The notes: generated from the letters alone by a model not told the origin. A stretch of 39,592 bases of DNA from an uncultured Clostridia bacterium (GCA_947254895.1 CAMYEY010000002.1:1-39592), one strand, 5' to 3'. Positions 3,802 through 31,240 are shown, numbered from the stretch's first letter. Made by a program: numbers and translations.

Positions 3802-4740
3802 ATGGAAGAACAGAAACTAGACCGCTTACAAGAATTGAATGGTACCCAGGGTTATCTACCCAAAGAAAGGGTGACGGGCTGGAGAGTTTGGCTGGTTTCT
3901 TTTGCTTTTGCTATCTTCCATTACACTGTCCTTAATCTAGCCGCTATTGTTGTGGCTTGCGTGATGCTCATTGCAAGTTCCACGGATATTACTGATGTTG
4001 GTGCTTTAGAGAGCCTCCTGGTAAGTTCACAGCTGCAAAATTATGCCTCGATTTTAATGTCTTTAGTCTGTTGCCCGGCCTATTTGATCTATCTTCATCT
4101 CAGGGGAGAAAAATACAAGGGACGCTGGGGCGGGCAAAAACTCACGCTTCACAGTGCTGCTTCAGCCATCTTAGCAATTTTGGGCAGTTTGGGCTTAGTA
4201 TCTGTCCTCATTATTGGCCTGCAAATGTTATCTGGACGCTTAACTTTTGTTGGTGATTGGCTAGAAGCTTATGACGATCTAGCTCAGATGATTATCGCGG
4301 ATGATGGTAACATTATCGTGGAATTTTTAGGTACAGTTTGCTTTGTTCCTGTTGCCGAAGAGCTCCTTTTCAGGGGGATTATTTTAGGGGAACTGCGGCT
4401 GCGTTATTCAGATAAGACCAGTGTTCTTATCCAAGCTGTACTTTTTGGGATCTTTCATATGAACCCTATCCAGTCCCTCTATACTTTTATACCGGGTTTG
4501 GTTTTGGGTATCTTATGTTGTCGCACTAACAATATCATGTTACCCATCATGGGGCATATGGTCTTTAATTTTTTCGGAGGCTTGCTATATTCGCTTGCAT
4601 CGGAAACGATACTGAATGTTATTACCATGGTGGAGATTTTTGTTGCTATCTATGCGATTTACCTGATTGTCCAATTTTTCTTTAAGGCTAACCAAGAAAC
4701 TAATCAGAAAGATAAGTCATATAGTGGGATACAACTATGA
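3802..4740 (+). CDS. CPBP family (CAAX-like) intramembrane glutamic protease
   Basis: Multi-TM protein carrying the three CPBP motifs: EELLFRG, FGIFH and HMVFN. Confidence 0.8.
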   Translation: MEEQKLDRLQELNGTQGYLPKERVTGWRVWLVSFAFAIFHYTVLNLAAIVVACVMLIASSTDITDVGALESLLVSSQLQNYASILMSLVCCPAYLIYLHLRGEKYKGRWGGQKLTLHSAASAILAILGSLGLVSVLIIGLQMLSGRLTFVGDWLEAYDDLAQMIIADDGNIIVEFLGTVCFVPVAEELLFRGIILGELRLRYSDKTSVLIQAVLFGIFHMNPIQSLYTFIPGLVLGILCCRTNNIMLPIMGHMVFNFFGGLLYSLASETILNVITMVEIFVAIYAIYLIVQFFFKANQETNQKDKSYSGIQL

Positions 4741-7700
4741 TTTTCGGTTATAGCAGGATTAAAAAACGGGTTCTTGTGGTCCTGGCACTTTGTTTACTAG
4801 CCCTTGTTTTACCTGTTTTTCTTCTTTATGCCTGTACAAGCCGGAGGGTTGGTTCAGATAATTTAGCTGACTTTGCCCTGGCTGATGTAGTTTCACGTCA
4901 ATCTATTCATGGCTTAGGTATCAATCTTGTAAATTTTAACAATGGTAACTTATTAGACAACAATTCCTTTGAACCGCTGGCTTATCGCCAGAATTTATTG
5001 ATTGATTCGGGAGATCAAAAAACCATTAAGGTAGCCATGCCCAATGACCCTAAATCGGGGATTTATGCTGACGATTTTTTTATTGGAGCCAAGGCAAATG
5101 TCTTGACAAGAGATAGTCAAGGTAATCGTCTACTCAAAAAGACGGGGACAGTGAACCAATATAAGTCAGACCAAATCGATAGTTTTTATAAACTTCCTTT
5201 ACCGCTTGACCTACCCATGCCGCTAAAATGGCAGGCCTTAGCTGAGAATGGTCAAACGGTGATAATGGGAGGTGAGCAGGGGTATATACTCTGCTTCAAG
5301 TCCTTATCTGAAGTAGCCGTAAAACGCCTTCCCAGTAAAAAGGATATAGTTGGAGCAGCCGGCTTTGATCAGTGTTTCATGATCTTAGATGCTGAGGGTA
5401 ACCTTTATAGTTTAAGTGAGGATGGCCGTTTTAAACTGCTGGTTCAGACTGGTAAGGTCGGTTATGGGGCAGAGGTTAAATTAGGTGATTTGACTAGGAC
5501 TAAGACCCCTCATACCACTAACCAAGCCTTAACTTGGCGGGGGCTTGCTGCTAGACTTGATCAAGACGGAAATTGGAACTTTCTGGCTGTTGCTGATAAG
5601 GGCTATTATCTTTACGGTGACGAGGAAAAATGTAAGTTGAGCCGCCTTACTAAGCCGGCTGATATTAATGCAATTACGGCCACCGAAGATGGCTTTTACC
5701 TGGTAGGGCAGAAATCATTGGCTTTTTATACTAACAATGGCCTCAATTTTCGCTATCTTGACCTGACTCAAGCCGGTGATTGGCAAGCTATTTCTTCTAG
5801 AGGTCGGCAAATTCTGATTTGTGGTAAGCAAGGACAGTTAGCTTTTAGCCCAGATGGTGTGATCTTTAAAGAATTGAATCAGACCAAGCTGCGTTCGATT
5901 TTTCAAAGCGATCAGGAAGAAAGAGACAAGAAGGATGAGACTCGCGAAACCATCAAACTTAACCCGGACTTCATGGCTTGTAGTATTCTTAGCAACCGCC
6001 AATTTATCCTTCTTGACCAACAGGGGAGAATGTATTACTCAGATGATTTGGGCCAAGACTGGTTGAGCGGTCAGCAACGCTTTAAGACTGGTGACGATAC
6101 AAGTGAGTTGGCGGAAAAGCCTTATAATCTGATCAGGAGAATTTCATCGGGGCAATTGATTGCCGCCGGTAATGATGGCTCTATCCAGTATGCTATGATG
6201 GGGCTAACGATCGAACTTGATAGCGGGTTGGAGCAGGGGAAGTACCAAAATGGTGATTTGCTTCAGCTGGAGCAGTTGGCGAGTGGGCCAGCCGGACAGG
6301 TTATGCTTGACCAAGAAGATGGTGAATGGTATGTTTCAGACCCTGGAAGTGTAGAGGTCCAATTTTCTGAGTCGGCACCAGGGGGTGGCCACACTGCCTT
6401 ATCTATAGATCTTGACCGAATAGCTGACAAAGGATCAGATAAATTGACAGGTCTTTATTCTGCCCAAACTATTCAAACAGACCGGATCGAAGATGGCTTT
6501 GTGCTAAGACAAAAGTTATCCAAACAAGTTTGTCCTAAAATTAATAATAATAATTTTTTCGTCTTTGACTTTTGGGCTAAAACGGATAATCCGGATGAGT
6601 TAGAGATGACCCTCAAAATGACTAATCTCAATTTTAACTTTGAGCCGGTAGTTAAATCAGTTCAAGGAGACTGGCAAAAATATCAAGTTTTCTTTGCCCT
6701 ACCTAAGTACTCGTTAAAAGAAGGTGAGGCTCCTTGCTTAAGTTTGTCCTTTAGGGGAGGGGGTAAGATCTATTTAGATAGCTTCTGGTTGGGACCGTCA
6801 AACGAATATGGTCATGAGTATAGCCTGGCAGCTTTTACAGGAAGGAAGTCTGGGTCAATCTTACGCTTGCCTGCATGTCCTGTTGGTAGTCCTGACCTGG
6901 CATCAGAGAGTTGGTTAAATAGTGATAATGGAGTAAGTGTCTTTCATCAAGAGAACAATAAACTTTTGCTTTTTTATCAAAACAACCTAGCCTTGAGTCT
7001 AGATTTTTGCAAGGATCTTGGTTTAAATCCTTGGCTTGTGATAGATTCTCAAGCCAGTGATTTAGAGCTTAAACATTTAATGCAATACTTGTTTGGCCAA
7101 GAAAATACCGCCTACGGCAAATTGAGAGCCGATCAAGGTGCTGTTAGCCGGTATTCTGATGTTTTCCAGCAGATTTATCTAGAGATCTTGGACAGTGAAG
7201 ATAAGCTGAGCAATGATAATCAAAGGCAAACTTATGTTGACTGGGTGATCAAGAGTTTGATTGAAACCCCGGAATATCCGCAAATTAAAGATAAGGTGAT
7301 TTTTGTCGACGGGATGAAGTATAAGGATAATGTCGTTTTATCTGGTGGCGATTTCCATGCCAGTGACCTAGTCCTTGATCGCAGAATTAACAGCCTGAGT
7401 GACTTGACTAGTTTTAATGATCACCTATCTGAAATTTTACCGCGTGACATTGATAGGTCTCTAGATTCCAGGTCTGAATTGATTAGATCAACTTCTCTAG
7501 CTACATCAGACCTCAGGCTTGCTGATTTGGTAGCTAGCTCTCTTAGTCTTTTGGGGGGTAAGAAGTCTGCATCCCTGCTTGATCTTGACTATAGTCAAAT
7601 GGAAGACCAGGGTCAGTTTGCAGCATGTTTTGGTCAGCTTGGAGATTTGATTTACGGTAGTAATTTATATGACTTGACTTCAAAAATAGAACAAGATAGG

Positions 7701-7934
7701 GTAGCAGCTTTTGCCTTTGGTAGAAAGCAAAAGCGGGTGATAGTTCTGGCTAATCTGTCTGAGGAAACAGTTGGTTGTCAGGTTTCAAATCTTAACTTTG
7801 AAGGCTTTCAGGAGTTTATCTATGATCGCCAAGGAAAACTTTTAGACCAAGCAAAGGTAAAGAGACGTGACCACTCTTTCTCACTCTTGCCGGGCTCTGT
7901 CATCATTTTAACAGGAGATGATAATGGTAAATAA
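4737..7934 (+). CDS. Large (1065 aa) membrane-anchored or lipoprotein-like exported protein with propeller-like, CBM-like and glycosidase-like regions; function unknown
   Basis: ATGA overlap with the CPBP stop. N-terminal hydrophobic anchor with a possible lipobox (LLYAC). One BNR/Asp-box-like motif (YSDDLGQDW). Central beta-sandwich-like stretch (FVFDFWAKT...GDWQKYQVFF...YLDSFWLGP). ILRLPAC sits where glycosidase TIM barrels often have RFPGG. Confidence 0.65.
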   Translation: MIFGYSRIKKRVLVVLALCLLALVLPVFLLYACTSRRVGSDNLADFALADVVSRQSIHGLGINLVNFNNGNLLDNNSFEPLAYRQNLLIDSGDQKTIKVAMPNDPKSGIYADDFFIGAKANVLTRDSQGNRLLKKTGTVNQYKSDQIDSFYKLPLPLDLPMPLKWQALAENGQTVIMGGEQGYILCFKSLSEVAVKRLPSKKDIVGAAGFDQCFMILDAEGNLYSLSEDGRFKLLVQTGKVGYGAEVKLGDLTRTKTPHTTNQALTWRGLAARLDQDGNWNFLAVADKGYYLYGDEEKCKLSRLTKPADINAITATEDGFYLVGQKSLAFYTNNGLNFRYLDLTQAGDWQAISSRGRQILICGKQGQLAFSPDGVIFKELNQTKLRSIFQSDQEERDKKDETRETIKLNPDFMACSILSNRQFILLDQQGRMYYSDDLGQDWLSGQQRFKTGDDTSELAEKPYNLIRRISSGQLIAAGNDGSIQYAMMGLTIELDSGLEQGKYQNGDLLQLEQLASGPAGQVMLDQEDGEWYVSDPGSVEVQFSESAPGGGHTALSIDLDRIADKGSDKLTGLYSAQTIQTDRIEDGFVLRQKLSKQVCPKINNNNFFVFDFWAKTDNPDELEMTLKMTNLNFNFEPVVKSVQGDWQKYQVFFALPKYSLKEGEAPCLSLSFRGGGKIYLDSFWLGPSNEYGHEYSLAAFTGRKSGSILRLPACPVGSPDLASESWLNSDNGVSVFHQENNKLLLFYQNNLALSLDFCKDLGLNPWLVIDSQASDLELKHLMQYLFGQENTAYGKLRADQGAVSRYSDVFQQIYLEILDSEDKLSNDNQRQTYVDWVIKSLIETPEYPQIKDKVIFVDGMKYKDNVVLSGGDFHASDLVLDRRINSLSDLTSFNDHLSEILPRDIDRSLDSRSELIRSTSLATSDLRLADLVASSLSLLGGKKSASLLDLDYSQMEDQGQFAACFGQLGDLIYGSNLYDLTSKIEQDRVAAFAFGRKQKRVIVLANLSEETVGCQVSNLNFEGFQEFIYDRQGKLLDQAKVKRRDHSFSLLPGSVIILTGDDNGK

Positions 7935-9189
7935 TTTTGATCAACTTTATTATCAAAATCCCTACATGTCAGAGTTTGTTTCTGACCTCTTATCCTATAG
8001 AGAAATGAAGGGGAGGACCTGGGTTAGGCTTAGTCAAACTTGTTTTTATCCTCTAGGTGGAGGGCAACCCGGTGATCAGGGAGAACTCCTGGTAGAAGAT
8101 CCTACAGGTTCCGGCTTGATTAAGGCCAGGTTTAGGGTCGTGGATACAATTTTGCAGGATGGCCAGGTATGGCATGGGTTAGAAAATGCATCCCTTAGCG
8201 ACCTGGAGCCTTTGCAAAAATGCAAGTTTAACGGCAAGATTGATTTTGATCGGCGTTTTGATTTTATGCAGCAACACACAGGTGAACATATAGTTTCCGG
8301 CCTGGTTAAGCAAAAATATGGCTACAACAATGTTGGGTTTAAAATCGGCGAGACGGAAACCAGTTTCGATTTTGATGGTGACCTGACTTGGTCTGAGTTG
8401 AATGAAATTGAGCTTTTAGCTAATCAAGCGGTTTACCAGAACTTGAAAATTCAGACCTACCAGCTCCAGGGTGAAGAACTCAGGAGTTGGCAATACAGGA
8501 GCAAGCTTGACCTAACAGGACCTGTTCGCTTGATTGTGATTCCCGGTTATGATCAGTGTGCTTGTGCCGGAACACATGTGGCTAGAACAGGTGAGATTGG
8601 ACAGATTAAGTTGATTAGGCGGGAGTCCTACAAGTCCGGTGTACGCCTCCATTTGGTCTGCGGTAGGAGGGCCCTCCTTTATCAGCAAAAATTACAGCAA
8701 ATTTTAAATTCTGCTGGTCAGATAATATCGGCAAATTTGGATAATTTTATAGAGCTTAGTTTAGCTAGAGAAGCTGAAATAGACCAGCTTAAGCAAGCTG
8801 CCGAAGCAAGAACCAAAGCTTGGTCTAATCTGGTTAAACAAAGGCTTGAGACAAGACAGACTAGCCTCTTAGTCAGTCCTACAATCTTTGAAAAAAAAGA
8901 ATGGCTTCCTGTGGCTCGTGATTTAGCTAGCCACCTGGATGGCTTTGTTTGCTTTTTATTTGCAAGGCCGGGGGATACACACTTTATTTTCCTCCATAGT
9001 GAAAAACTGGATGTTAAAGAATTTCTACCTGAGATGAGAGAGCAGATTGGTTTCAAAGGGGGAGGGAATGGATCTACCATACAGGGCCATATTAGTGTAG
9101 ACCTTTCAGAAGTCGAGGTGTTTTTGAAAGATGTTTCGGCTAAAAAACTGGGAAAAAACAGTGCTTTTATCCTTCTATGTCAAGATTAG
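7924..9189 (+). CDS. alaX: AlaX-L type alanyl-tRNA editing protein (AlaRS second-additional-domain family)
   Basis: HxxxH (HTGEHIVSG) and CxxxH (CACAGTHV) zinc motifs of the AlaRS/ThrRS editing domain, and an N-terminal LYYQNPYMSEF opening typical of AlaX-L. ATG 7924 has AGGAG 6 nt upstream; ATG 7918 is the alternative. It overlaps the end of the upstream gene. Confidence 0.8.
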   Translation: MVNNFDQLYYQNPYMSEFVSDLLSYREMKGRTWVRLSQTCFYPLGGGQPGDQGELLVEDPTGSGLIKARFRVVDTILQDGQVWHGLENASLSDLEPLQKCKFNGKIDFDRRFDFMQQHTGEHIVSGLVKQKYGYNNVGFKIGETETSFDFDGDLTWSELNEIELLANQAVYQNLKIQTYQLQGEELRSWQYRSKLDLTGPVRLIVIPGYDQCACAGTHVARTGEIGQIKLIRRESYKSGVRLHLVCGRRALLYQQKLQQILNSAGQIISANLDNFIELSLAREAEIDQLKQAAEARTKAWSNLVKQRLETRQTSLLVSPTIFEKKEWLPVARDLASHLDGFVCFLFARPGDTHFIFLHSEKLDVKEFLPEMREQIGFKGGGNGSTIQGHISVDLSEVEVFLKDVSAKKLGKNSAFILLCQD

Positions 9190-9275
9190 ATAAAAACAAT
9201 TTGTTCAATTTGCATAAAGCAAATCGGATGTTTTGTGATGAATAACCAAAAAACAAAAAGAGAATTCGAAAAATA

Positions 9276-9304
9276 TTGACCGTTTTGTGGTGCGAAACTA
9301 TACT
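9276..9304 (+). promoter_or_regulatory. Sigma-A type promoter: TTGACC, 17-nt spacer, TATACT
   Basis: The -35 TTGACC is at 9276-9281, the spacer is exactly 17 nt, and the -10 TATACT is at 9299-9304. An A-rich tract lies upstream. No + strand ORF follows. Confidence 0.55.
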
Positions 9305-9310
9305 TTAATC

Positions 9311-9840
9311 AAGCTTCAGGGAATTCTAAAAACCTTGATGAAAGATTCATCACCGTATGGATCGGAAGGCAGTAACTTGACAACGGAACATTGAACTCAA
9401 AGTTGGGATTCACGAGACTTTGTATATCTAGGGAAGCGAATGGATTTTCTGTAAAATGAGGAAACTATAGAAGACTATGCCACAGTTCTAAGAACGCAGA
9501 CCCTAATGCATGAGTGTGATAATTGTTAGATTAAATGGATGAGATGAAAATGATTAGAAATATAAGATCCCGGCAATGAGTAAGAAACAACAGTCATTAA
9601 GAAAGTCATAAAAAAGAATGAGAACGTTGCAAACAGTATGGGAAGTTGGAAAAGCTGCAAGTCTGAAATTAAGTTTTAGAGTGGGTTCAACGGATCACTA
9701 GAATGTGCCAAAAGCAGGTCTAAGTGAAGTTGGTAAAAGTAAAGTCTAAGCCTAAATGAGAACTTACTAGCAGATGAAAAAATTCCGTTAATGATGGTCG
9801 GACGTCAAAAAGCCAAAGGTTCGCTGAAGCTTATTTTTAT
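9311..9840 (+). ncRNA. Candidate large non-coding RNA (about 0.53 kb), class not recognised
   Basis: Lies in an ORF-free gap between convergent genes. The predicted TSS is about 9311. The 5' AAGCTTCAG (9311-9319) is perfectly complementary to CTGAAGCTT (9824-9832), with an added GAA/TTC pairing (9321-9323/9820-9822), and ATTTTTATT follows. Local hairpins at 9336-9352 and 9662-9680. Confidence 0.45.
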
Positions 9841-9853
9841 TGTCCCGTCTATA

Positions 9854-10366
9854 TTATGGTTCAAGACAGACTATGTCCCTCAGATTCCGATATTTTTCTT
9901 GATAATCCATGCCGTAGCCAACCAGTCTTGTATAGCCTATTTCAAATCCCCAATATTTTAAAGGTAATTGGATCATCAATTGATCGTGGTTAACGAGTAG
10001 GCTAGCTAATTGGATTGTAGCCGGCTTGAATTTTTCCAGGTGTTCAATCATATAGTGGGTAGTAAGTCCGGAACGGATAATTTCCTCTAAAACAAGGATA
10101 TGCTGGCCAGCGAGGTCAATAGCTACATCCTTTGTGATATGAATCGATTGTGAGCTGGATTGTAGTTTGTTGATAGCTATGAAGTCAAAGTTTACGGGGA
10201 GGTTGATGGAACGGGTTAGATCAGATAAAAAATAAGTTGATCCCTTAAGCATTGCAATGACGCAAAGTGGACCATCAAGCTTTTGATAATCGTGGCTGAT
10301 CTCTCGACCTAAGTCTTCGATCCTTTGTTGGATCTTGCTTTCGCTGAACATCACATTTCCCAACAT
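9854..10366 (-). CDS. Hypoxanthine/guanine phosphoribosyltransferase-family protein, divergent active site
   Basis: Collinear with Bacillus HprT (LKGSxxFxxDL, VGYGMDYxEKYRNL). The start is set at the ATG with AGGAGGA 5 nt upstream (MLGNVMFSES...). The longer ORF to 10462 would overlap the upstream gene. Confidence 0.75.
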   Translation of the reverse strand: MLGNVMFSESKIQQRIEDLGREISHDYQKLDGPLCVIAMLKGSTYFLSDLTRSINLPVNFDFIAINKLQSSSQSIHITKDVAIDLAGQHILVLEEIIRSGLTTHYMIEHLEKFKPATIQLASLLVNHDQLMIQLPLKYWGFEIGYTRLVGYGMDYQEKYRNLRDIVCLEP

Positions 10367-10403
10367 ATATGTCCTCCTGTTAAAAATAACAATTAAACTT
10401 TCT

Positions 10404-11444
10404 CTAACCGTTGAAACGCTCAAGCAAAGATAAAAAGTCCCTCTTGTATATGATTTTGACATTTATTCCGGGGTATAGTTCTTGTAATTTTTCTAGTTTC
10501 TTCTTCTTGGCTGTAACATACTTTTGATTCATTGTGGTTAACTCCAGGTAGATATCAAATTTAGGCAAATAAAAATCTGGGCTGAATGCCATGGTGACAT
10601 TATGAGCATCATCCCATTCAACAGGAAAAAATTTAGGTTCATATCGCCAATCAATCTGGTATAGGTTGAGTAAGCGGGCAAATTCTGATTCAGACTCATT
10701 TTTAAAGTTAGGTAGGTTGCTATTCTGCGTCTGTAAGATTGAGTTTTCAGCCTGCTGCTCAAGTTTTCGCCTGATCCGGTACTCCTCAATGAGGCGGTCA
10801 ACTAGGCTTAGACAATTTTCAAGTGATAATCTGCCTGTGTTTAAAATTAAATGAAAGTCCTCATTTTGAGCTTGTCGTCCATGGAACAGAGTAGAGATTA
10901 GCTTTCGGTATTGTTTATCGATCCTGGTTTGCAGCTCTCTTGCACTCAATTTGGTAATTTCCTGGGGACTGATAAATCTTTCTAGAAAGATGAGTTCGCT
11001 GATTGAATTTATGCTGGTATGAAATTCCTTGTTTTGGCTAAGGTAATGGCGATACATTGTATATTGGGCTTGGGCTTGGGCGACCCTTTGTATTTTTACC
11101 TCGTTCGCTGCTATTGTTTTAATATGGATCGCTCTGGGATTGTTGGCTAAAAACCGGTCTCCTGCACATCCCAGCATGATGGCATCATTGCTTTTACTCC
11201 ACTCCTCCAGGGCTCCTTCAAGGTAAGATTTAAAATCAGTTTGTTCACCTGGGCCAACCGGTTCAAAAAAGAATTTTGTACTGGTTTCTAGCATTTGCCT
11301 TTCATGATCACTCGCTATGGGCTTGAGAAAAAGATCAATCATTTTATCAAAGTCAATCAGAGGATAACCTGTCTTTCTTGACAGGCGTTCAGCAAGTTCA
11401 TCCCCGAAACTAGCAGCTTCACGGGCAACAGTTATAATGGGCAC
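10404..11444 (-). CDS. Cytidylate-kinase-like (Cytidylate_kin2-type) N-domain fused to a PD-(D/E)xK-like C-terminal domain; function unknown
   Basis: The N-terminus IITVAREAASFGDELAERLSRKTGYPLIDFD resembles the cytidylate-kinase-like family. The C-terminus ExxFA...WRYEP...FSPDFYLPKFDIYLELTT follows the restriction-endonuclease-fold pattern (E ... PDF ... ExT). Confidence 0.55.
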   Translation of the reverse strand: MPIITVAREAASFGDELAERLSRKTGYPLIDFDKMIDLFLKPIASDHERQMLETSTKFFFEPVGPGEQTDFKSYLEGALEEWSKSNDAIMLGCAGDRFLANNPRAIHIKTIAANEVKIQRVAQAQAQYTMYRHYLSQNKEFHTSINSISELIFLERFISPQEITKLSARELQTRIDKQYRKLISTLFHGRQAQNEDFHLILNTGRLSLENCLSLVDRLIEEYRIRRKLEQQAENSILQTQNSNLPNFKNESESEFARLLNLYQIDWRYEPKFFPVEWDDAHNVTMAFSPDFYLPKFDIYLELTTMNQKYVTAKKKKLEKLQELYPGINVKIIYKRDFLSLLERFNG

Positions 11445-13091: not shown

Positions 13092-13126
13092 GTTCCACTT
13101 ATCTCCCTTAGTCTATCACGGCTGAC

Positions 13127-13135
13127 ATTGTAACA
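13127..13135 (-). promoter_or_regulatory. Extended -10 element TGTTACAAT (read on the - strand) for the four-gene operon
   Basis: The + strand reads ATTGTAACA at 13127-13135, about 40 nt upstream of the 13091 start. The same 9-mer occurs at both XRE promoters. Confidence 0.4.
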
Positions 13136-13199
13136 TGTAAAATTCATCAGGAAAACCGGTTTGGCCTTTTTGAGAAAGCTCTTTACCATTAACTGGATG

Positions 13200-13208
13200 T
13201 GTTACAAT
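13200..13208 (+). promoter_or_regulatory. Extended -10 element TGTTACAAT upstream of the first XRE gene
   Basis: TG-T-TACAAT at 13200-13208, 52 nt upstream of the ATG at 13260. Embedded in the short inverted repeat GTGT...ACAC. Confidence 0.45.
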
Positions 13209-13259
13209 AAGACACAGTGCCTTAAAGCTACATAACTCTCACATAGATAAGGAAGAAAA

Positions 13260-13538
13260 ATGGGAAATTTTGCAGAAAATTTAAAGCGACTTCGAAAATC
13301 CAGTAAGCTCACCCAGGGACAACTGGCTCAACAAATAAATTGCTCAAGGTCTCTCATATCCCTGTATGAGACAGGCCAACGTTTACCTAGCTTTATGGTT
13401 CTAGCTAAACTTAGCAAGATTTTCAAAACTAGTGTGGATGAGTTGATCGGCAATATGCCTGTTGAAGCTGATAACCAGGTTGATCTAAGTTCCGGTGAAC
13501 TGCTTGAGGTTGCGGAGACAGGAAAAGATTTTGATTGA
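13260..13538 (+). CDS. XRE-family helix-turn-helix transcriptional regulator
   Basis: NLKRLRKSSKLTQGQLAQQINCSRSLISLYETGQRLP is a canonical HTH_3/Cro-C1 motif. Confidence 0.8.
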   Translation: MGNFAENLKRLRKSSKLTQGQLAQQINCSRSLISLYETGQRLPSFMVLAKLSKIFKTSVDELIGNMPVEADNQVDLSSGELLEVAETGKDFD

Positions 13539-13628
13539 TCCTTGAAGTTTAACTATTGATCAGAGGATAAATCCATTCGGATATTTAAGACGCAAACAAC
13601 TCCTAGTGTTAGTGGATCTTACAATAAT

Positions 13629-13647
13629 ATGTTACAATAAGTAACAT
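13629..13647 (+). promoter_or_regulatory. Perfect inverted repeat ATGTTAC-AATAA-GTAACAT overlapping an extended -10 TGTTACAAT (probable operator plus promoter)
   Basis: 7-bp arms with a 5-bp spacer. Preceded by a direct copy of TTACAATAA at 13619-13627. Confidence 0.5.
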
Positions 13648-13688
13648 ATAGAGCGTTTTCAAAGTAAGTGAGAGGTGAGGGGTTTGCC

Positions 13689-13889
13689 GTGAGACAATGG
13701 TTAAGAGACAGACGACTAGCAGAGCAACTGACCCAAGAAGAGGTGGCCAAGCATCTTGGTCTAGCCCGGGCCTACTATACCCAGATAGAACTTGGAAATC
13801 GACGGCCCTCGCCTGAAGTGGCTCAAGCCTTAGGCCGGCTACTTCATTTTAGTTGGACAATATTCTTCGATGAAAAAGAGGACTGCTAG
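13689..13889 (+). CDS. Small XRE-family helix-turn-helix regulator
   Basis: LTQEEVAKHLGLARAYYTQIELGNRRPS HTH motif. GTG 13689 is preferred because GAGGTGAGGGG ends 6 nt upstream. The ORF track start at 13668 has no Shine-Dalgarno. Confidence 0.7.
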   Translation: MRQWLRDRRLAEQLTQEEVAKHLGLARAYYTQIELGNRRPSPEVAQALGRLLHFSWTIFFDEKEDC

Positions 13890-14016
13890 GATGGTTATTG
13901 GGTGAGTGCTCTTTAGAGTCTTAGGGGTAGGGCGATAGATCCTTTCCTAGCTTGAAAATCAAACTATAAAAATTCACAATTGTTCATTTTTAGTTCGCAC
14001 ATTAATAGAGGCAAAG

Positions 14017-14056
14017 TGTATAATGTAATCAAGATCAAAGAAAGTCAAAGTCAAAG
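14017..14056 (+). promoter_or_regulatory. ctsR operon promoter (-10 TATAAT at 14019-14024) with a CtsR operator direct repeat
   Basis: GATCAAA-gaa-AGTCAAA (14033-14049) plus a third GTCAAAG. It matches the (A/G)GTCAAA-NAN-(A/G)GTCAAA CtsR box with one mismatch and lies just downstream of the -10. Confidence 0.7.
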
Positions 14057-14131
14057 ACAGAGAAGGTCAGACATTGGTTCTAAAAAGCTTTATTGAGACT
14101 TTGCAGGAAAAAGAAGGGAGAAAATTAAGCA

Positions 14132-14611
14132 ATGTCAAATCTTAGTGATACTATCGAATATCTATTAAAGCAAATGCTTGCGGATAACGAGGGTAGAATT
14201 GAATTTACTCGCAATGACTTGGCAGAAAGATTGAATTGTGTTCCCTCACAGATCAGTTATGTTCTTCAGACCCGGTTTACCAATGGTATGGGTTACATAA
14301 AAGAGAGCCGTAGAGGAGGCGGTGGTTCAATCAGAATTTACCAGGTGAATTTTGATTCTCCCCAAGAGCACTTGGTCCATCAAATACAATCCCTGCCTGA
14401 GAGTTTAAGTCAGCAGGAATCAAATTTGATCATCGATAACCTTAACCAGCAAAAGGCAATTACTGAGACCTATTCTCAAATTGCCAAGGCTGCGGTTTCT
14501 GAGCAAGCCCTGGTGGATGTACCGGTGGCTGAAGTTGGCAGAGTAAGATCGGCTATCTTGAGTAATGTTTTACTGACAATATTAAGGTTAGAGGGAAGGA
14601 GTGAGGAATAA
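14132..14611 (+). CDS. ctsR: CtsR, class III stress-gene repressor
   Basis: ISYVLQTRFTNGMGYIKESRRGGGGSIRI is the CtsR signature, including the arginine/glycine loop. Confidence 0.9.
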   Translation: MSNLSDTIEYLLKQMLADNEGRIEFTRNDLAERLNCVPSQISYVLQTRFTNGMGYIKESRRGGGGSIRIYQVNFDSPQEHLVHQIQSLPESLSQQESNLIIDNLNQQKAITETYSQIAKAAVSEQALVDVPVAEVGRVRSAILSNVLLTILRLEGRSEE

Positions 14612-14612
14612 G

Positions 14613-15248
14613 ATGTTATGTGATAAATGTAAAAAGAACGAGGCAACTGTAAGCATTAGGACAAATATTAACGGAGTTACCAAACAACAAAAGCTCTGTC
14701 GAGATTGCGCACAAGAGGAGGGAGTGTTTGAGTCTGCTTTTGATACTTTACCAATTCCTAATTATGTAGGCCAATCAGCTTTTTCCCTACCCTTTAGCCT
14801 AGCCAAGGTTTTTGGGCAGTTGGACCCGGGTCAGATGACCAAGACCATATCTTTTGATGTCTGCCCTGATTGTGGACGAAGTATAGCTAATTTTCAAGAA
14901 GACGGTCTTTTTGGCTGTCCGACATGTTATTCACATTTTAGAAATTGGATTGAACCTATGCTTGATGAAATTCAAGGTGGTCATATCCAGTTAGAGGTTG
15001 TAGGAGGAGATGGAAGTCGAGGCATAGACCTGGATACTTCCATAAGTGCAGAAGAATCAGGTAAGTCTGAACCGTTAGAAAACAGCCCGTTATCTACCTT
15101 GCAGGTTAAGCTGAAAGACTTGGTTCAGCAAGAAAAGTATGAAGAAGCGGCCCTGGTTCGGGACCAAATCAAGGCAATTAAAGAGGATGAACAGGCCAGA
15201 GACGGTGGGATAAAACCCAATGGTCAGGCCCAAGATGAGGGGGAATAA
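14613..15248 (+). CDS. mcsA: McsA, protein-arginine kinase activator (zinc fingers plus UVR domain)
   Basis: CDKC...CRDC and CPDC...CPTC motifs and a UVR-like segment (QQEKYEEAALVRDQIKAIK). ATG 14613 follows GGAAGGAG. Confidence 0.85.
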   Translation: MLCDKCKKNEATVSIRTNINGVTKQQKLCRDCAQEEGVFESAFDTLPIPNYVGQSAFSLPFSLAKVFGQLDPGQMTKTISFDVCPDCGRSIANFQEDGLFGCPTCYSHFRNWIEPMLDEIQGGHIQLEVVGGDGSRGIDLDTSISAEESGKSEPLENSPLSTLQVKLKDLVQQEKYEEAALVRDQIKAIKEDEQARDGGIKPNGQAQDEGE

Positions 15249-15249
15249 G

Positions 15250-16272
15250 ATGAGTTGGTATGACCGGCACGGACCAGACCAAGATGTGATTGTTAGCACT
15301 CGGGTGCGACTAGCCAGAAATATAAAAGGACATGCCTTCCCCCACCTGCTCAAAGAGCAAGAAAGGGAAGACCTAATCCAGGAAATAGCCGACCGGGTGC
15401 GGCAGATTGATCCGGTCTCTTTTCACCTCGTTCGGAGAGATGATTTGACAGACATAGATAGGTTGAGTCTTGCTGAGCACCATATAATAAATCCCATGCT
15501 GCTTAAGTCAGGCCAGGATCACGGTCTCATGATCAATGACCAGGAAGACCTCAGTATTCTCTTGTTAGATGAGGACCACCTGCGTGTCCAGTCCATAGCT
15601 GCCGGATTTAGACCGGATGATGTCTTTGATCGGGCGAAGAAGTTGGCGACAGCTCTCGAAAGTGTCCTGGATATAGCAAAGGATAAAAATTTTGGCTACT
15701 TGACAGCTTGTCCTACTAATGTGGGTACGGGACTCAGAATTTCTGTCCTGTTTCACGCAGCAGGTCTAAATCGATTGGGCCAATTGAAGTATCTCATTGA
15801 TTCTTTGCGCAGGTCAGGTTATACGGTGAGGGGTTATTATGGCGAGGGTAGCCAAGATCAGGGCCAGATGATACAGGTTTCTAACCAAGTAACCCTAGGT
15901 CAGAGTGACTTTGATATGGTTAAAAAGTTCTCGGCCCTGATGCAGGTTGTCATAGATAAGGAAAGAAATGCCCGTAAGGCTTGGTATGACCAAGAGGGCA
16001 TTCAACTGAAGGATAAGATTTACAGGTCAAAGGCTATCCTGGAAAATGCCTATTTGGTTGGGCATAATGAAGCTTTTGCTTGTTTAAGCGACCTGAGGTT
16101 GGGCAGAGCTTTGGGATTTGAAGCTTTCCCCGATTACCCGGATATCTTAGCTCTAAGCTACTTGGCTGGGGTTGGATCAATCCAAAAACAAAAGGGAAAG
16201 ATTTTGCAGGCTGACGAGAGGGATGCAGCCAGAGCAGAATTAATAAAAGAAAGACTATTACGAGCTGAATAA
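15250..16272 (+). CDS. mcsB: McsB protein arginine kinase
   Basis: Phosphagen-kinase motifs EDHLRVQ and CPTNVGTGLR. ATG 15250 follows GAGGGGG. Confidence 0.9.
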   Translation: MSWYDRHGPDQDVIVSTRVRLARNIKGHAFPHLLKEQEREDLIQEIADRVRQIDPVSFHLVRRDDLTDIDRLSLAEHHIINPMLLKSGQDHGLMINDQEDLSILLLDEDHLRVQSIAAGFRPDDVFDRAKKLATALESVLDIAKDKNFGYLTACPTNVGTGLRISVLFHAAGLNRLGQLKYLIDSLRRSGYTVRGYYGEGSQDQGQMIQVSNQVTLGQSDFDMVKKFSALMQVVIDKERNARKAWYDQEGIQLKDKIYRSKAILENAYLVGHNEAFACLSDLRLGRALGFEAFPDYPDILALSYLAGVGSIQKQKGKILQADERDAARAELIKERLLRAE

Positions 16273-16305
16273 GCTGAGAATAAATAATTTAGGAGGAATT
16301 TTACT

Positions 16306-18849
16306 ATGATGATAAGATTATCTGAAAGAACAGCCAAGGTTTTGGCTGAAGCCTATCGGATGGCTAGGGCATATGGGCTCGACTATATCGGCACAGAGCA
16401 CTTGCTGAAAGGCATTATTGATGAAGGTGGGCTGGCTAGTCAGATGTTGCAACAGTATCAGCTGACTTCTGACAGCATCGTTCAAATATTAAACCAATTT
16501 AACAATAAAGAAGCTAGCGACCTTGGCCCCGGTGGAGACCAGGATATTAATCTGATTTACCAGATGATGACCCCAAGAACAAAACAAGTTTTAAATCTGG
16601 CAGCCAGAGAATCTACTGTGCGCAATGCCCAATTAATTGAACCGGAACACCTTTTGCTAGGGATCCTCAGAGAAGGGGATAGTGTGGCCGTAAGGATCCT
16701 CAGAAGTGCTGATATTTCAATCCAGAGGCTTTATGCTGAAATCAGTAAGCAGATCAGCGACAATAGCTTTGCTTCCTTTGGTCAAGCTGGTCAGACATCT
16801 TCTGATAAAGAACAGGGAGCAGGTAACAGCCAAACTCCGACCCTTGATCAGTTTGGGGTTGATTTAACTGCCTTAGCCCAAAAAGATGGTTTTGACCCCA
16901 TCATTGGTCGCGATGAGGAGATCAACCGAGCTATGCAGATCCTTTGTCGTCGGACTAAAAATAACCCAGTTTTGATCGGTGAGCCTGGTGTCGGTAAAAC
17001 TGCCATTGCCGAAGGCCTAGCCCAGAAGATTGTGGCTGGCGATGTGCCAGAACTTTTGCAGAACAAGCGACTCTTTTCACTTGACCTTTCCGGTATGTTG
17101 GCGGGAGCTAAATACCGGGGTGAGTTTGAAGAAAGACTCAAGAAGGGGATTGAAGAGGCCACCAAAGCGGGCAACATGATCCTCTTTATCGATGAGCTCC
17201 ATACTTTAGTGGGAGCAGGTGCTTCTGAGGGAGCCATGGATGCCGCTAATATTTTAAAACCAATGTTGGCTAGGGGGGAACTCCAGGTTATCGGAGCAAC
17301 TACGATCGACGAGTATCGTAAAAATATTGAGAAAGATGCAGCTCTTGCTCGACGTTTCCAACCCATTATGGTGGATGAGCCGAGTGAAGAAGATTCTATC
17401 AGGATTCTTTATGGCTTGCGTGAAAAATACGAAAAGCATCACCATGTGAAAATCTCTGATGAAGCTATCAAGGAAGCTGTTGCTCTTTCCAGTCGCTATA
17501 TTACGGACCGCTTCTTGCCTGATAAGGCGATCGATTTGATTGACGAGGCAGCCTCTAAGTTAAGGATGGCTCAGACCAGCCACCCCAAAGAGCTTTTGGC
17601 CAAGGAGGAAGAGTTAAAGTCCGTTATTAGTCAAAAAAACAAGGCTGTTGAAACTGAAAAATTTGAGGAAGCTGCAAAATTACTAGAACAGGAAAACAAA
17701 CTGCAGGAAGAAATTAAATCGGTAAAGGAGAACCACCAGGAGGATAAAAACGATGAGCCAGTTGTCGGTGTTGATGATATAGCCTCAATCGTAGCCTCGT
17801 GGACCGGTATTCCGGTGATGAAGCTGACTGAAGATGATCAAGAAAAAATGAGAAACTTGGAAAGCGAGCTTGAAAAACGGGTGATCGGTCAAGACGAGGC
17901 GGTTGTAGCTGTAGCTAAAGCTATCAGGCGGGGACGCTTGGGACTCAAGAACCCCAACCGGCCAACCGGATCCTTCCTCTTCCTAGGTACAACCGGTGTT
18001 GGTAAAACAGAGTTGGCTCGTGCCTTAGCAGACACTATGTTTGGTGATGAGAATGCCATGGTGAGGATTGACATGTCCGAATATATGGAAAAATTTGATG
18101 TGTCTAAACTGATTGGTTCTCCTCCGGGTTATGTTGGCTATGAAGAAGGTGGCCAGCTGACCGAGCAAGTCCGTCGCCACCCCTACTCGGTCGTCCTCTT
18201 TGATGAGGTCGAAAAAGCCCATCCAGATGTCTTTAATGTCCTCTTGCAAGTTCTTGAGGATGGTCGATTGACAGACGGTCAGGGCAGGACGGTCAACTTC
18301 AAAAATACCATCATCATTATGACTTCAAATATCGGAGCAGGTTTATTGACTTCTGATGTTGCCAATAAGATCGGTTTTGATGTTGATGGCTTGAAAAATC
18401 AAGAGTCATCTGATGATACGGGTAAAAACGATAAGTTTGAAGAGCAAAGCCTCTATGGCGGTCGGTCCTTTGACGAAGCAAAGAAAATGATTATGGAAGA
18501 GGTGAAAAGGGTATTTTCGCCTGAGTTCCTCAACCGTATCGATGAGATTATTTTCTTTAAGATGTTGTCCAAGGAATCTATCCTGAAGATTGTCGACATC
18601 ATGATTGGACAGCTGGTCAAGAGAATTGCAGACATCGGCATCCAGATTGAAGTTACTGATGCTGCTAGAGAATGGTTGGCAGAACATGGCTACGAGCCTC
18701 ACTATGGGGCAAGGCCACTCCGTCGCCTGATCCAGTCCGCTGTCGAAGATACCTTCTCCGAGGCTATGCTGGATGGCCTGGTAAAGGAAGGCGATACTGC
18801 CCTAATTGATGTTGCCGATAACAAAATCACTGTCCAGAAAAAATCTTAG
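16306..18849 (+). CDS. clpC: ClpC AAA+ chaperone / Clp protease ATP-binding subunit
   Basis: Clp_N repeats, two Walker A boxes ([16 protein letters not shown]), and a UVR-like linker between the AAA+ modules. Confidence 0.95.
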
Positions 18850-30718: not shown

Positions 30719-30759
30719 ACAGATAGTTTTTCGGAGCCTTACCTGGCAAGAAAACAAAG

Positions 30760-30790
30760 ACGGTAACAAATTTTAGATTACCGTTTTATT
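30760..30790 (+). terminator. Probable intrinsic terminator after hisE
   Basis: ACGGTAA (30760-30766) pairs with TTACCGT (30778-30784), followed by TTTATT. The 11-nt loop is rather large. Confidence 0.45.
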
Positions 30791-30940
30791 ATAATTGCCA
30801 AGGGCAAAACCCAGCAGGGCAAAAGACAAGAGCGCAACACGCTTAAAAATGAATCAAAAAATTAGCCCCATCTAACCAGTCAAAACTCTCAAAAGGCCTA
30901 CCTAGAGCCAGTTAGCTCGATCTAATCTTTTTCTAAAAGC

Positions 30941-30969
30941 TTGTTTATCGGGGGACCATTTGCTAAAAT
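30941..30969 (+). promoter_or_regulatory. Promoter for the ferredoxin gene: TTGTTT, 17-nt spacer, TAAAAT with a TG extension
   Basis: -35 at 30941-30946, TGc at 30961-30963, -10 at 30964-30969, about 35 nt upstream of the ATG. Confidence 0.45.
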
Positions 30970-31004
30970 AGCATTGTGTTAAAGTAAGGTAAGGAGGTAA
31001 CGAT

Positions 31005-31175
31005 ATGGCTCATGTAATTTCAGATGCTTGCATTATGTGTGGAGCATGTACAAGTGAGTGCCCGGTATCCTGTATTTCAGAGGGTGACTCCCAGTATGTG
31101 ATTGATCCTGATATGTGCATTGACTGTGGTGCTTGTGCTGCGGTTTGCCCAGTTGGAGCAATTGAAGCAGAATAA
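31005..31175 (+). CDS. fdx: Clostridial-type 2x[4Fe-4S] ferredoxin, 56 aa (absent from the supplied ORF track)
   Basis: My translation is MAHVISDACIMCGACTSECPVSCISEGDSQYVIDPDMCIDCGACAAVCPVGAIEAE. It contains two CxxCxxCxxxCP motifs. AAGGAGG lies 7 nt upstream. Confidence 0.85.
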   Translation: MAHVISDACIMCGACTSECPVSCISEGDSQYVIDPDMCIDCGACAAVCPVGAIEAE

Positions 31176-31204
31176 TAATTTGTTACAAATATTAAACATT
31201 AAAA

Positions 31205-31229
31205 AGAGGATCACTGGATCCTCTTTTTT
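31205..31229. terminator. Bidirectional intrinsic terminator shared by the convergent fdx and MBL genes
   Basis: AGAGGATC-ACTG-GATCCTCT hairpin flanked by an A-run on the 5' side and a T-run on the 3' side. Confidence 0.8.
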
Positions 31230-31240
31230 GTCTTCTGTTC

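Follow-up and report, generated by a model that had tools for sequence, protein, structure and literature searches.

A probable stand-alone gene for a large, highly structured noncoding RNA, of a family absent from Rfam, in a clade of uncultured Clostridia

To our knowledge, bacterial noncoding RNAs (ncRNAs) that are longer than ~400 nucleotides (nt) and adopt complex conserved folds are very rare, and beyond ribosomal RNA, RNase P, transfer-messenger RNA (tmRNA) and the group I and II introns we know of only a handful (OLE, GOLLD, ROOL, HEARO and a few others). The known large RNAs are biochemically unusual and include a membrane ribonucleoprotein, RNA nanocages and the guide RNA of IscB, and GOLLD is often longer than 800 nt. 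OLE is found in many Gram-positive species (PMC12265935), the genes for ROOL and GOLLD occur in phages and prophages, often close to transfer RNA (tRNA) islands (PMC12286853), and the much smaller raiA motif is found in more than 2,500 species. The analysis presented here concerns positions 9311–9832 (+ strand) of a 39,592-nt stretch of DNA from an uncultured Clostridia bacterium (GCA_947254895.1 CAMYEY010000002.1:1-39592), the whole of which is termed the window. Judged by its sequence and that of its relatives, this 522-nt element, measured from the first to the last base of its terminal helix P1, is very probably a stand-alone gene for a large, highly structured ncRNA of a family not in Rfam. 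It has the generic attributes of an ncRNA gene, with its own conserved promoter, conservation above the neutral level and compensatory changes in its base pairs.

The element resembles several of the described systems and is matched by none of their models. No match to Rfam 15 was obtained at the gathering threshold for the whole window, at E ≤ 10 for positions 9100–9950 or at E ≤ 5 for six homologous loci, the low-score matches (E 0.3–9) being snoRNA-type noise. The original prediction had placed the RNA in no known class, and this covariance-model check, which included OLE, ROOL, GOLLD, HEARO and raiA, agrees. The likeness to OLE lies in the size (~500–650 nt), the anaerobic Bacillota hosts, the many helices among long invariant runs and the stand-alone gene. 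The RNA differs from OLE in that the Rfam OLE model gives no hit even with the threshold relaxed to E ≤ 10, in being limited to one small uncultured clade (compared to the many Gram-positive species given for OLE in PMC12265935) and in its flanking genes, which are alaX and an hpt-like gene and not genes for OLE-associated proteins (oapA). As had been noted from the window alone, no oapA-like gene lies downstream; the flanking products are of AlaX type, a phosphoribosyltransferase (PRTase) similar to HGPRTase and a cytidylate-kinase-like protein.

With ROOL and GOLLD the element shares the character of a large ornate bacterial RNA, with a variable or disordered internal region and long-range helices that close it, but neither the window RNA nor the six homologous loci match their covariance models, and at 490–665 nt the family falls short of the usual length of GOLLD. 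Further, unlike these phage-borne RNAs it is chromosomal (ctsR-mcsB-clpC lie close by) and syntenic; ARAGORN found no tRNA or tmRNA in the 39.6-kb window, and a distant-mode blastn search of 50,697 phage records gave no match. Ten matches to an invariant 16-mer in IMG/VR were dismissed as chance, none being recognised by the family profile. The raiA motif is likewise a structured Bacillota ncRNA with its own promoter, but neither its model nor that of HEARO matches. The RNA also recalls RNase P RNA, 6S RNA, the signal recognition particle (SRP) RNA and tmRNA in its ends clamped by a terminal helix, its strong consensus-like promoter and its multiple domains, but again there is no covariance-model match, ARAGORN does not call a tmRNA, and the P4 motifs of RNase P were not seen in the window RNA on inspection by eye. 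No description of an RNA at 9311–9832 was found in the searchable literature. Thus the RNA family appears to be new; the broad category of large structured bacterial RNAs is already known, and the novelty lies at the level of the family.

The element occupies a 664-bp gap (9190–9853) bounded by two gene 3′ ends, that of alaX (an AlaX-type alanyl-tRNA editing gene; 7918–9189, +) on its left and that of a hypoxanthine-PRTase-like gene (hpt-like; 9854–10462, −), which converges with alaX on the gap. This had been singled out as the only long gap of the window, and it is the sole one truly free of genes, because the 1-kb gap at 13092–14131 holds two XRE-type helix-turn-helix genes and the 522-nt gap at 30719–31240 a 56-amino-acid (aa) ferredoxin-like open reading frame (ORF). 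The longest ORFs that touch the gap measure 35, 44 and 56 aa, consistent with the earlier statement that none reaches 60 aa, and the purine content of the + strand over 9311–9830, put at about 62% beforehand, was computed as 62.3%.

A sigma-70-type promoter precedes the element at 9276–9304 (+), composed of a −35 box TTGACC (9276–9281), a 17-nt spacer and a −10 box TATACT (9299–9304), with exactly 6 nt between the −10 box and the first base of P1 (9311). The promoter was part of the original prediction, and its hexamers and geometry are kept in 16 of 16 loci, all of which show TTGAC[CA], a 16–17-nt spacer, TA[TA]ACT, exactly 6 nt and then AAGCUU. The spacer sequences are unrelated among loci despite the fixed hexamers. 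Across the window, promoter-like sites are not above chance (4 versus 4.8 ± 2.7 expected). With this geometry fixed, transcription is predicted to begin at the first base of P1; both the transcription start site and the 3′ end given here derive from the geometry of promoter, P1 and U-run.

In P1, the strand AAGCUUCAG (9311–9319, +) pairs with CUGAAGCUU (9824–9832, +), the latter preceded by an invariant AGGUUCG (block 9817–9832). The two outermost 9-nt segments of the RNA pair in every case, and P1 is identical in 14 of 14 sequences, with a U-G replacing one U-A in two sequences. At the level of DNA this is a terminal inverted repeat with 13-nt arms (9311–9323 and 9820–9832; 92% complementary), and the 9-mer AAGCTTCAG occurs three times in the window against 0.75 expected, two of the copies being the arms of the repeat. 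The terminal helix and its GAA/UUC extension had both been proposed from the window alone, and comparison supports the two of them; where covariation of the terminal helix was looked for, complementarity was found throughout (14/14) and covariation was not, the helix being invariant. The invariant GGGAAUUC that follows (9320–9326, +) forms either P1b (9321–9325 with 9818–9822) or the pseudoknot P2 (9320–9325 with 9781–9786; GGAAUU/AAUUCC), and a third alternative pairing for the invariant core is ACCU/AGGU. The only informative variation at P1b/P2 is a change of a P2 U-A to U-G in clades D and E. Positions 9311–9326 also contain two 6-nt palindromes, AAGCUU, which recurs at the 3′ end, and GAAUUC, which reads GAAUAC in the outgroup locus L113.

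Directly after P1 comes a U-rich tract (9833–9841, +), the presumed 3′ end of the transcript, and a U-run occupies this place in all 15 loci that reach so far. The helix preceding the U-run is the long-range P1 and not a local hairpin, and on this sequence arrangement P1 and the U-run together probably also end transcription. P1, the GGGAAU that follows its 5′ strand and the GGUUCG that precedes its 3′ strand are identical even in L113, in which most other helices differ in sequence. That the paired termini are invariant while every other helix drifts with compensation suggests that they are recognised by their sequence by some partner.

Conservation beyond the strain, which the original prediction had left as a test, is evident from 14 distinct sequences in six subclades, found at 16 loci, a lower bound on the true distribution. 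All carriers are uncultured Clostridia (Saccharofermentanales-like), titled as Clostridiaceae or Saccharofermentanales metagenome-assembled genomes, and several come from samples labelled biogas reactor or anaerobic digester. A scan with the AlaX protein, limited to one genome per species, yielded 80 loci, among which only the three best (L001, L002 and L003; AlaX 43–47% identical) share DNA similarity in the gap, at 79–87% identity over ~100 nt and ~70% over 240–280 nt. The element was not found in the 77 alaX loci of other Clostridia and other phyla (L004–L080; nhmmer at E ≤ 1e-3, covariance model at E ≤ 1). A protein search placed ~14 AlaX clusters at 41–65% identity, followed by a drop to ≤39%, and every contig fetched from this AlaX clade carries the element within a shared gene order, comprised of a large protein of 1050–1180 aa, alaX, the gap and the convergent PRTase and Cytidylate_kin2 genes. 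Every syntenic relative was detected by nhmmer with E-values of 1e-44 to 1e-142 for the element. Scanning metagenomes with a degenerate 5′ pattern returned four real members and two chance matches in GC-rich coding DNA, with no member outside the clade. Searching with the cytidylate-kinase-like protein added two more lineages, L114, which groups with clade C, and L113, an outgroup richer in GC, with a cytidylate-kinase-like protein that shares 45% identity with that of the window.

Two of these loci depart from the shared gene order. On the metagenome contig L110 (560–1204), alaX is missing and the element and its promoter are kept; here the promoter lies ~170 nt past the end of the gene for the large (~1065-aa) protein. 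In L113 a Metallophos gene stands between alaX and the RNA and the hpt cassette is inverted, and the RNA is kept. The RNA is in this respect independent of its neighbors, persisting without alaX in one genome and beside an inverted hpt cassette in the other. The L113 element spans 5429–5964 (+; flanks 4766–7568). Relative to it the cytidylate-kinase-like and hpt genes are inverted, and 36 nt separate the end of its U-run from the cytidylate-kinase-like start codon. This spacing is too short for a separate promoter, and therefore the hpt/cytidylate-kinase-like cassette of L113 may be expressed by read-through from the RNA promoter.

The degree of conservation is consistent with selection on the RNA. 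Third-codon identity to the window in alaX is 36–43% even in the closest relative, such that these sites are saturated, and the curated RNA core retains 63–91% identity. Among the fully occupied core columns, 83 of 176 are invariant across the 14 sequences, and ~80 nt in and around the junction strands never vary. No conservation is seen in the promoter spacer or between the alaX stop codon and the −35 box, and these stretches serve as an internal neutral control. None of this conservation reflects a protein. Each of 12 homologs has between 2 and 31 stops in every frame, no ORF is common to the homologs, the longest ORFs are unrelated to one another and the invariant blocks are separated by 1–3-nt indels. 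A protein-coding gene or pseudogene was rejected on the grounds of these stops, these indels and the lack of a kept reading frame, and the possibility raised originally, that relatives might encode an intact protein of which this is a decayed copy, did not materialize, as no homolog encodes a protein at the site.

Inside P1, helix P3 joins UUGAUG (9335–9340, +), part of the invariant block ACCUUGAU, to CGUCAA (9803–9808, +), as located by duplex folding in all sequences; its position 6 is C-G, G-C or U-A and its position 7 G-C or A-U. In L105 (2190–2249) and L109, the RNA tail holds a 19-nt tandem duplication, with AAUGAUGAGAGAAGAUCAU present twice, which copies the P3 3′ strand. The hairpin Hp1 (9344–9363, +; GAUUCAU/AUGGAUC, with CACC in the loop) undergoes a U-A to A-U exchange between clades A–C and clade E, and L113 has two other hairpins instead. 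The 5′ strands of P4 (P4a 9369–9373, P4b 9374–9378 and P4c 9381–9385, +), from RNAalifold on the uncurated alignment, pair with 3′ strands in the block 9625–9658 (P4c 9625–9629, P4b 9643–9647 and P4a 9654–9658, +). Among the sequences the P4a pairs are UA, UG or CG, and the P4c pairs G-C, U-A or A-U. The P5 arm (9395–9399/9577–9581 and 9402–9410/9566–9574; span 9395–9581, +) encloses a hypervariable insert at 9411–9565 and is present in every clade with a sequence that differs by clade, except in D (L092), for which the automated search was anchored to an incorrect position. P5 also covaries within clades, with ACUCA/UGAGU in the window and AUUCA/UGAAU in L091, and similarly GCUGGCA/UGCCGGC and ACCGGCA/UGCCGGU. 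The P6 hairpin, which pairs CAUU (9595–9598) with AAUG (9617–9620; span 9595–9620, +), was read by eye without a formal count, and appears as CAUC/GGUG in clade C and CAUUU/AAAUG in clade B.

The 3′ domain (9661–9775, +) is a long irregular arm with a variable tip, built of Ha (9661–9665/9771–9775; C-G and U-A exchanges), Hb (9670–9673/9763–9766; G-C and A-U, arisen twice independently), Hc (9683–9686/9750–9753; from RNAalifold), Hd (9688–9691/9729–9732; C-G, U-A and a U-G intermediate) and He (9696–9698/9724–9726; U-A, C-G and A-U), all on the + strand. It is followed by an A-rich linker and the invariant UUCCGUUAAUG (9776–9793, +), the latter invariant in 13 of 14 sequences. Within the 3′ domain of L105 there is a ~30-nt insert after GGUAAAA.

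RNAalifold on the uncurated MAFFT alignment recovered five elements, specifically P1 extended by GAAUU/GGUUC, a pairing of GCAGU-AACUU with AAGUU...GCUGC, Ha and Hb, and Hc, with 6 of 41 pairs compensatory. Aligned separately, the 3′ domain gave Hc, Hd and He, including a pair (44/75) that is U-A in six sequences, C-G in four and A-U in three. MAFFT misplaces helix strands between clades (the 3′ strands of Ha and Hb, P3 and Hp1), and therefore a hand-curated core alignment and an Infernal alignment were made. An all-against-all helix finder proved too noisy and was set aside. The curated core has 266 columns, with variable parts masked, gaps as N and helices located by invariant-block anchors and duplex folding, and it passed through MAFFT unchanged. 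Across its 14 sequences and 67 pairs, the paired fraction of cells is 92.9% and both sides change in 18 pairs, versus 8.8 ± 1.8 in shuffled alignments (0 of 500 reach this value); the covariation score is 0.218 versus 0.128 in shuffles (0 of 500). Slid controls had at most 4 pairs changing on both sides and a score of at most 0.066. Additionally, clades D and E and L113 alone were used to build a covariance model of the 3′ domain, and this model found the left-out clades A, B and C at full length (E 1e-5 to 1e-13) and nothing else in the collected sequences. In the alignment to this check model, the paired fraction is 93.1% and both sides change in 11 of the 25 pairs (4.9 ± 1.4 in shuffles; 0 of 500). 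Both counts speak to the call, made with the original prediction, for compensatory changes in the nested helices. Conserved G-U pairs (for example core columns 124/210, 14/248 and 148/192) become A-C mismatches on the opposite strand, and because many such pairs would mismatch there, the + strand is taken as the functional one. The unconstrained minimum free energy (MFE) fold of the window RNA already holds 69 of 87 comparative pairs, and enforcing all of them costs 7 kcal/mol.

All internal complementary segments listed in the original prediction are present in the window sequence, but of its eight helices three survive comparison, the terminal helix, the GAA/UUC extension and 9402–9410/9566–9574, which relatives keep as part of P5. 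The strands of the hairpin proposed at 9336–9342/9346–9352 belong instead to P3 and Hp1. The helix 9382–9388/9783–9789 (AACGGAA/UUCCGUU) has a U·C mismatch in 8 of 12 sequences and P4c covaries in its place; the related pairing of CGGAA with UUCCG fails in clade C, which has CGGUU. The 5′ strand of 9391–9399/9682–9690 (UUGAACUCA/UGGGUUCAA) is part of P5, where the window and L091 covary, and other pairings replaced the hairpins 9575–9579/9594–9598 and 9662–9668/9674–9680. The accompanying caution that internal helices of 7–9 bp are expected by chance was well placed, with all but 9402–9410/9566–9574 contradicted.

It should be noted that several observations weigh against a structured, stand-alone RNA. 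The curated alignment was hand-fitted to the structure and the Infernal alignment model-fitted; only ~20 independent compensatory events underlie the counts, and the shuffle controls take no account of phylogeny. Neither strand gives a significant MFE z-score (−1.16 for +, 0.16 for −). P1, P1b and P2 are drawn from invariant complementarity and show no covariation, and the terminator scan found no local GC-rich or canonical terminator hairpin at the 3′ end. Finally, all of the sequences are restricted to a narrow clade.

In the arrangement proposed for the RNA, the transcript would start at the first base of P1 from its own sigma-70-type promoter, and P1 would clamp both ends of the molecule and, with the U-run, end transcription. 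A junction inside P1 and P3 would organise Hp1, P4a–c and the 3′ arm. The long interrupted helix P4a–c would carry the P5 arm, with its hypervariable insert of 150–400 nt, and the P6 hairpin, while Ha–He would make up the irregular 3′ arm of 115 nt. This architecture is likened to that of the stable trans-acting RNAs (OLE, ROOL, raiA and RNase P RNA) because of its consensus-like promoter, clamped termini, multi-helix junction with ~80 invariant nt and dispensable hypervariable insert. By this analogy the RNA would act in trans as a folded particle. The most likely role, offered tentatively on the same analogy, is to bind one or more proteins as a scaffold or platform; it is less likely that the RNA assembles without protein, or that it acts as a catalyst or binds a ligand. 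It is likely, if less firmly held than the gene itself, that the RNA is the founding example of a new class of large (0.5–0.65 kb) ornate RNAs with clamped termini and an invariant tertiary core recognised by a partner.

The main rival explanation is a cis-acting regulatory RNA, with the fold deciding between termination at P1 and the U-run and read-through into the hpt/cytidylate-kinase-like cassette, the read-through transcript being antisense in the majority of genomes and forming a sense leader in L113. In every locus that reaches the cassette, the RNA ends beside it: convergent loci leave 12–289 nt to the hpt stop codon, and L113 leaves 36 nt to the cytidylate-kinase-like start codon. By contrast, the adjacency to alaX has been broken twice. 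With its distant strands and the U's behind it, P1 is reminiscent of a P1-controlled terminator and could be a conditional terminator beside a purine-salvage gene; riboswitch-controlled antisense RNAs are known in Firmicutes. Nonetheless this explanation is unlikely. The next gene is convergent in the window and 14 other loci, such that 15 of 16 loci lack a co-oriented downstream gene and L113 is the sole exception; the two orientations of the cassette imply opposite regulatory outcomes, and the distance to hpt varies >20-fold. With 490–665 nt and at least 12 helices, the RNA is far above any known riboswitch or attenuator (at least three times the size of known examples) and matches no known aptamer, while a near-consensus promoter and clamped ends are typical of stable stand-alone RNAs. 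Synteny within a narrow clade is in any case weak evidence of linkage.

Another rival is a homo-oligomeric particle made of RNA only, comparable to the nanocages of ROOL and GOLLD or to the dimer of OLE. The size and ornate multi-domain fold are in the same range, the hypervariable insert is comparable to the disordered linker of ROOL (PMC12286853) and the palindromes AAGCUU and GAAUUC at the invariant 5′ end could pair between copies. It is nevertheless considered improbable. Phages and tRNA islands show no connection with the RNA, a loop switching from one palindrome to another was not found, and dimerization through GAAUUC is weakened by the non-palindromic GAAUAC of L113. The position of the element between two gene 3′ ends, with no alaX terminator predicted upstream of it, could also indicate a 3′ untranslated region of alaX or a bidirectional alaX/hpt terminator region and not a separate gene. 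This is very unlikely, given a promoter of fixed geometry 120–210 nt past the alaX stop codon in all loci, the persistence of element and promoter without alaX in L110 and with an intervening gene in L113, and 500 nt of covarying structure for which a terminator has no need. Barely credible is a DNA-level element, either a miniature inverted-repeat transposable element bounded by AAGCTTCAG...CTGAAGCTT or a decayed pseudogene or small-protein gene, as the 13-nt terminal inverted repeat and the purine-rich + strand (as in coding strands) are outweighed by a single copy in the window and per locus, a fixed syntenic site across lineages with saturated synonymous sites, strand-specific G-U pairs with compensatory changes, and stops in every frame with 1–3-nt indels between conserved blocks.

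Should the reading of a large trans-acting RNA hold, it would point to a new ribonucleoprotein or RNA-only machine specific to this lineage of anaerobic-digester Clostridia, and to a function in organisms that matter for biogas production. A further class would offer a new fold for structural biology and a benchmark for the prediction of RNA structure. Its distinctive set of features would be a fixed promoter, invariant clamped termini, a junction of the four-way type, a hypervariable insert and a narrow host range, and the narrow distribution and uncultured hosts temper its significance.

The genes on either side of the RNA have features of their own. The alaX product on record is 421 aa long and begins MVNNFDQ. 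The start of alaX is overlapped by 17 nt by the 3′ end of the gene for a 1065-aa protein (4737–7934, +), which has no Pfam or NCBIfam domain and directly precedes alaX in all relatives that keep alaX at this position. On the other side of the gap, the hpt-like ORF has 202 aa if its first ATG is taken as the start and then runs into the 3′ end of the gene upstream, and the proteins of relatives are 170–177 aa; the true start is probably a Met near 10369. Its product scores 138 bits, and the substrate assignment is uncertain because this falls under the HGPRTase equivalog cut-off of 150. The conserved neighbor at 10404–11444 (−) encodes a protein of 346 aa that begins with a Cytidylate_kin2 domain and has a C-terminal half of uncharacterised type; nothing was found for this protein in PDB or NCBIfam. 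This protein is 342–348 aa in genomes that carry the RNA and 307–320 aa in more distant homologs.

Further along the window, the ORF between convergent genes at 31005–31175 (+), in the 522-nt gap, encodes 56 aa with two CxxCxxCxxxCP motifs (2x[4Fe-4S] ferredoxin type). The two small XRE-type genes of the 1-kb gap (13260–13538 and 13668–13889, +) sit upstream of the ctsR-mcsA-mcsB-clpC stress operon (14132–18849), and such a pair is also present beside ctsR in L113 and L114.

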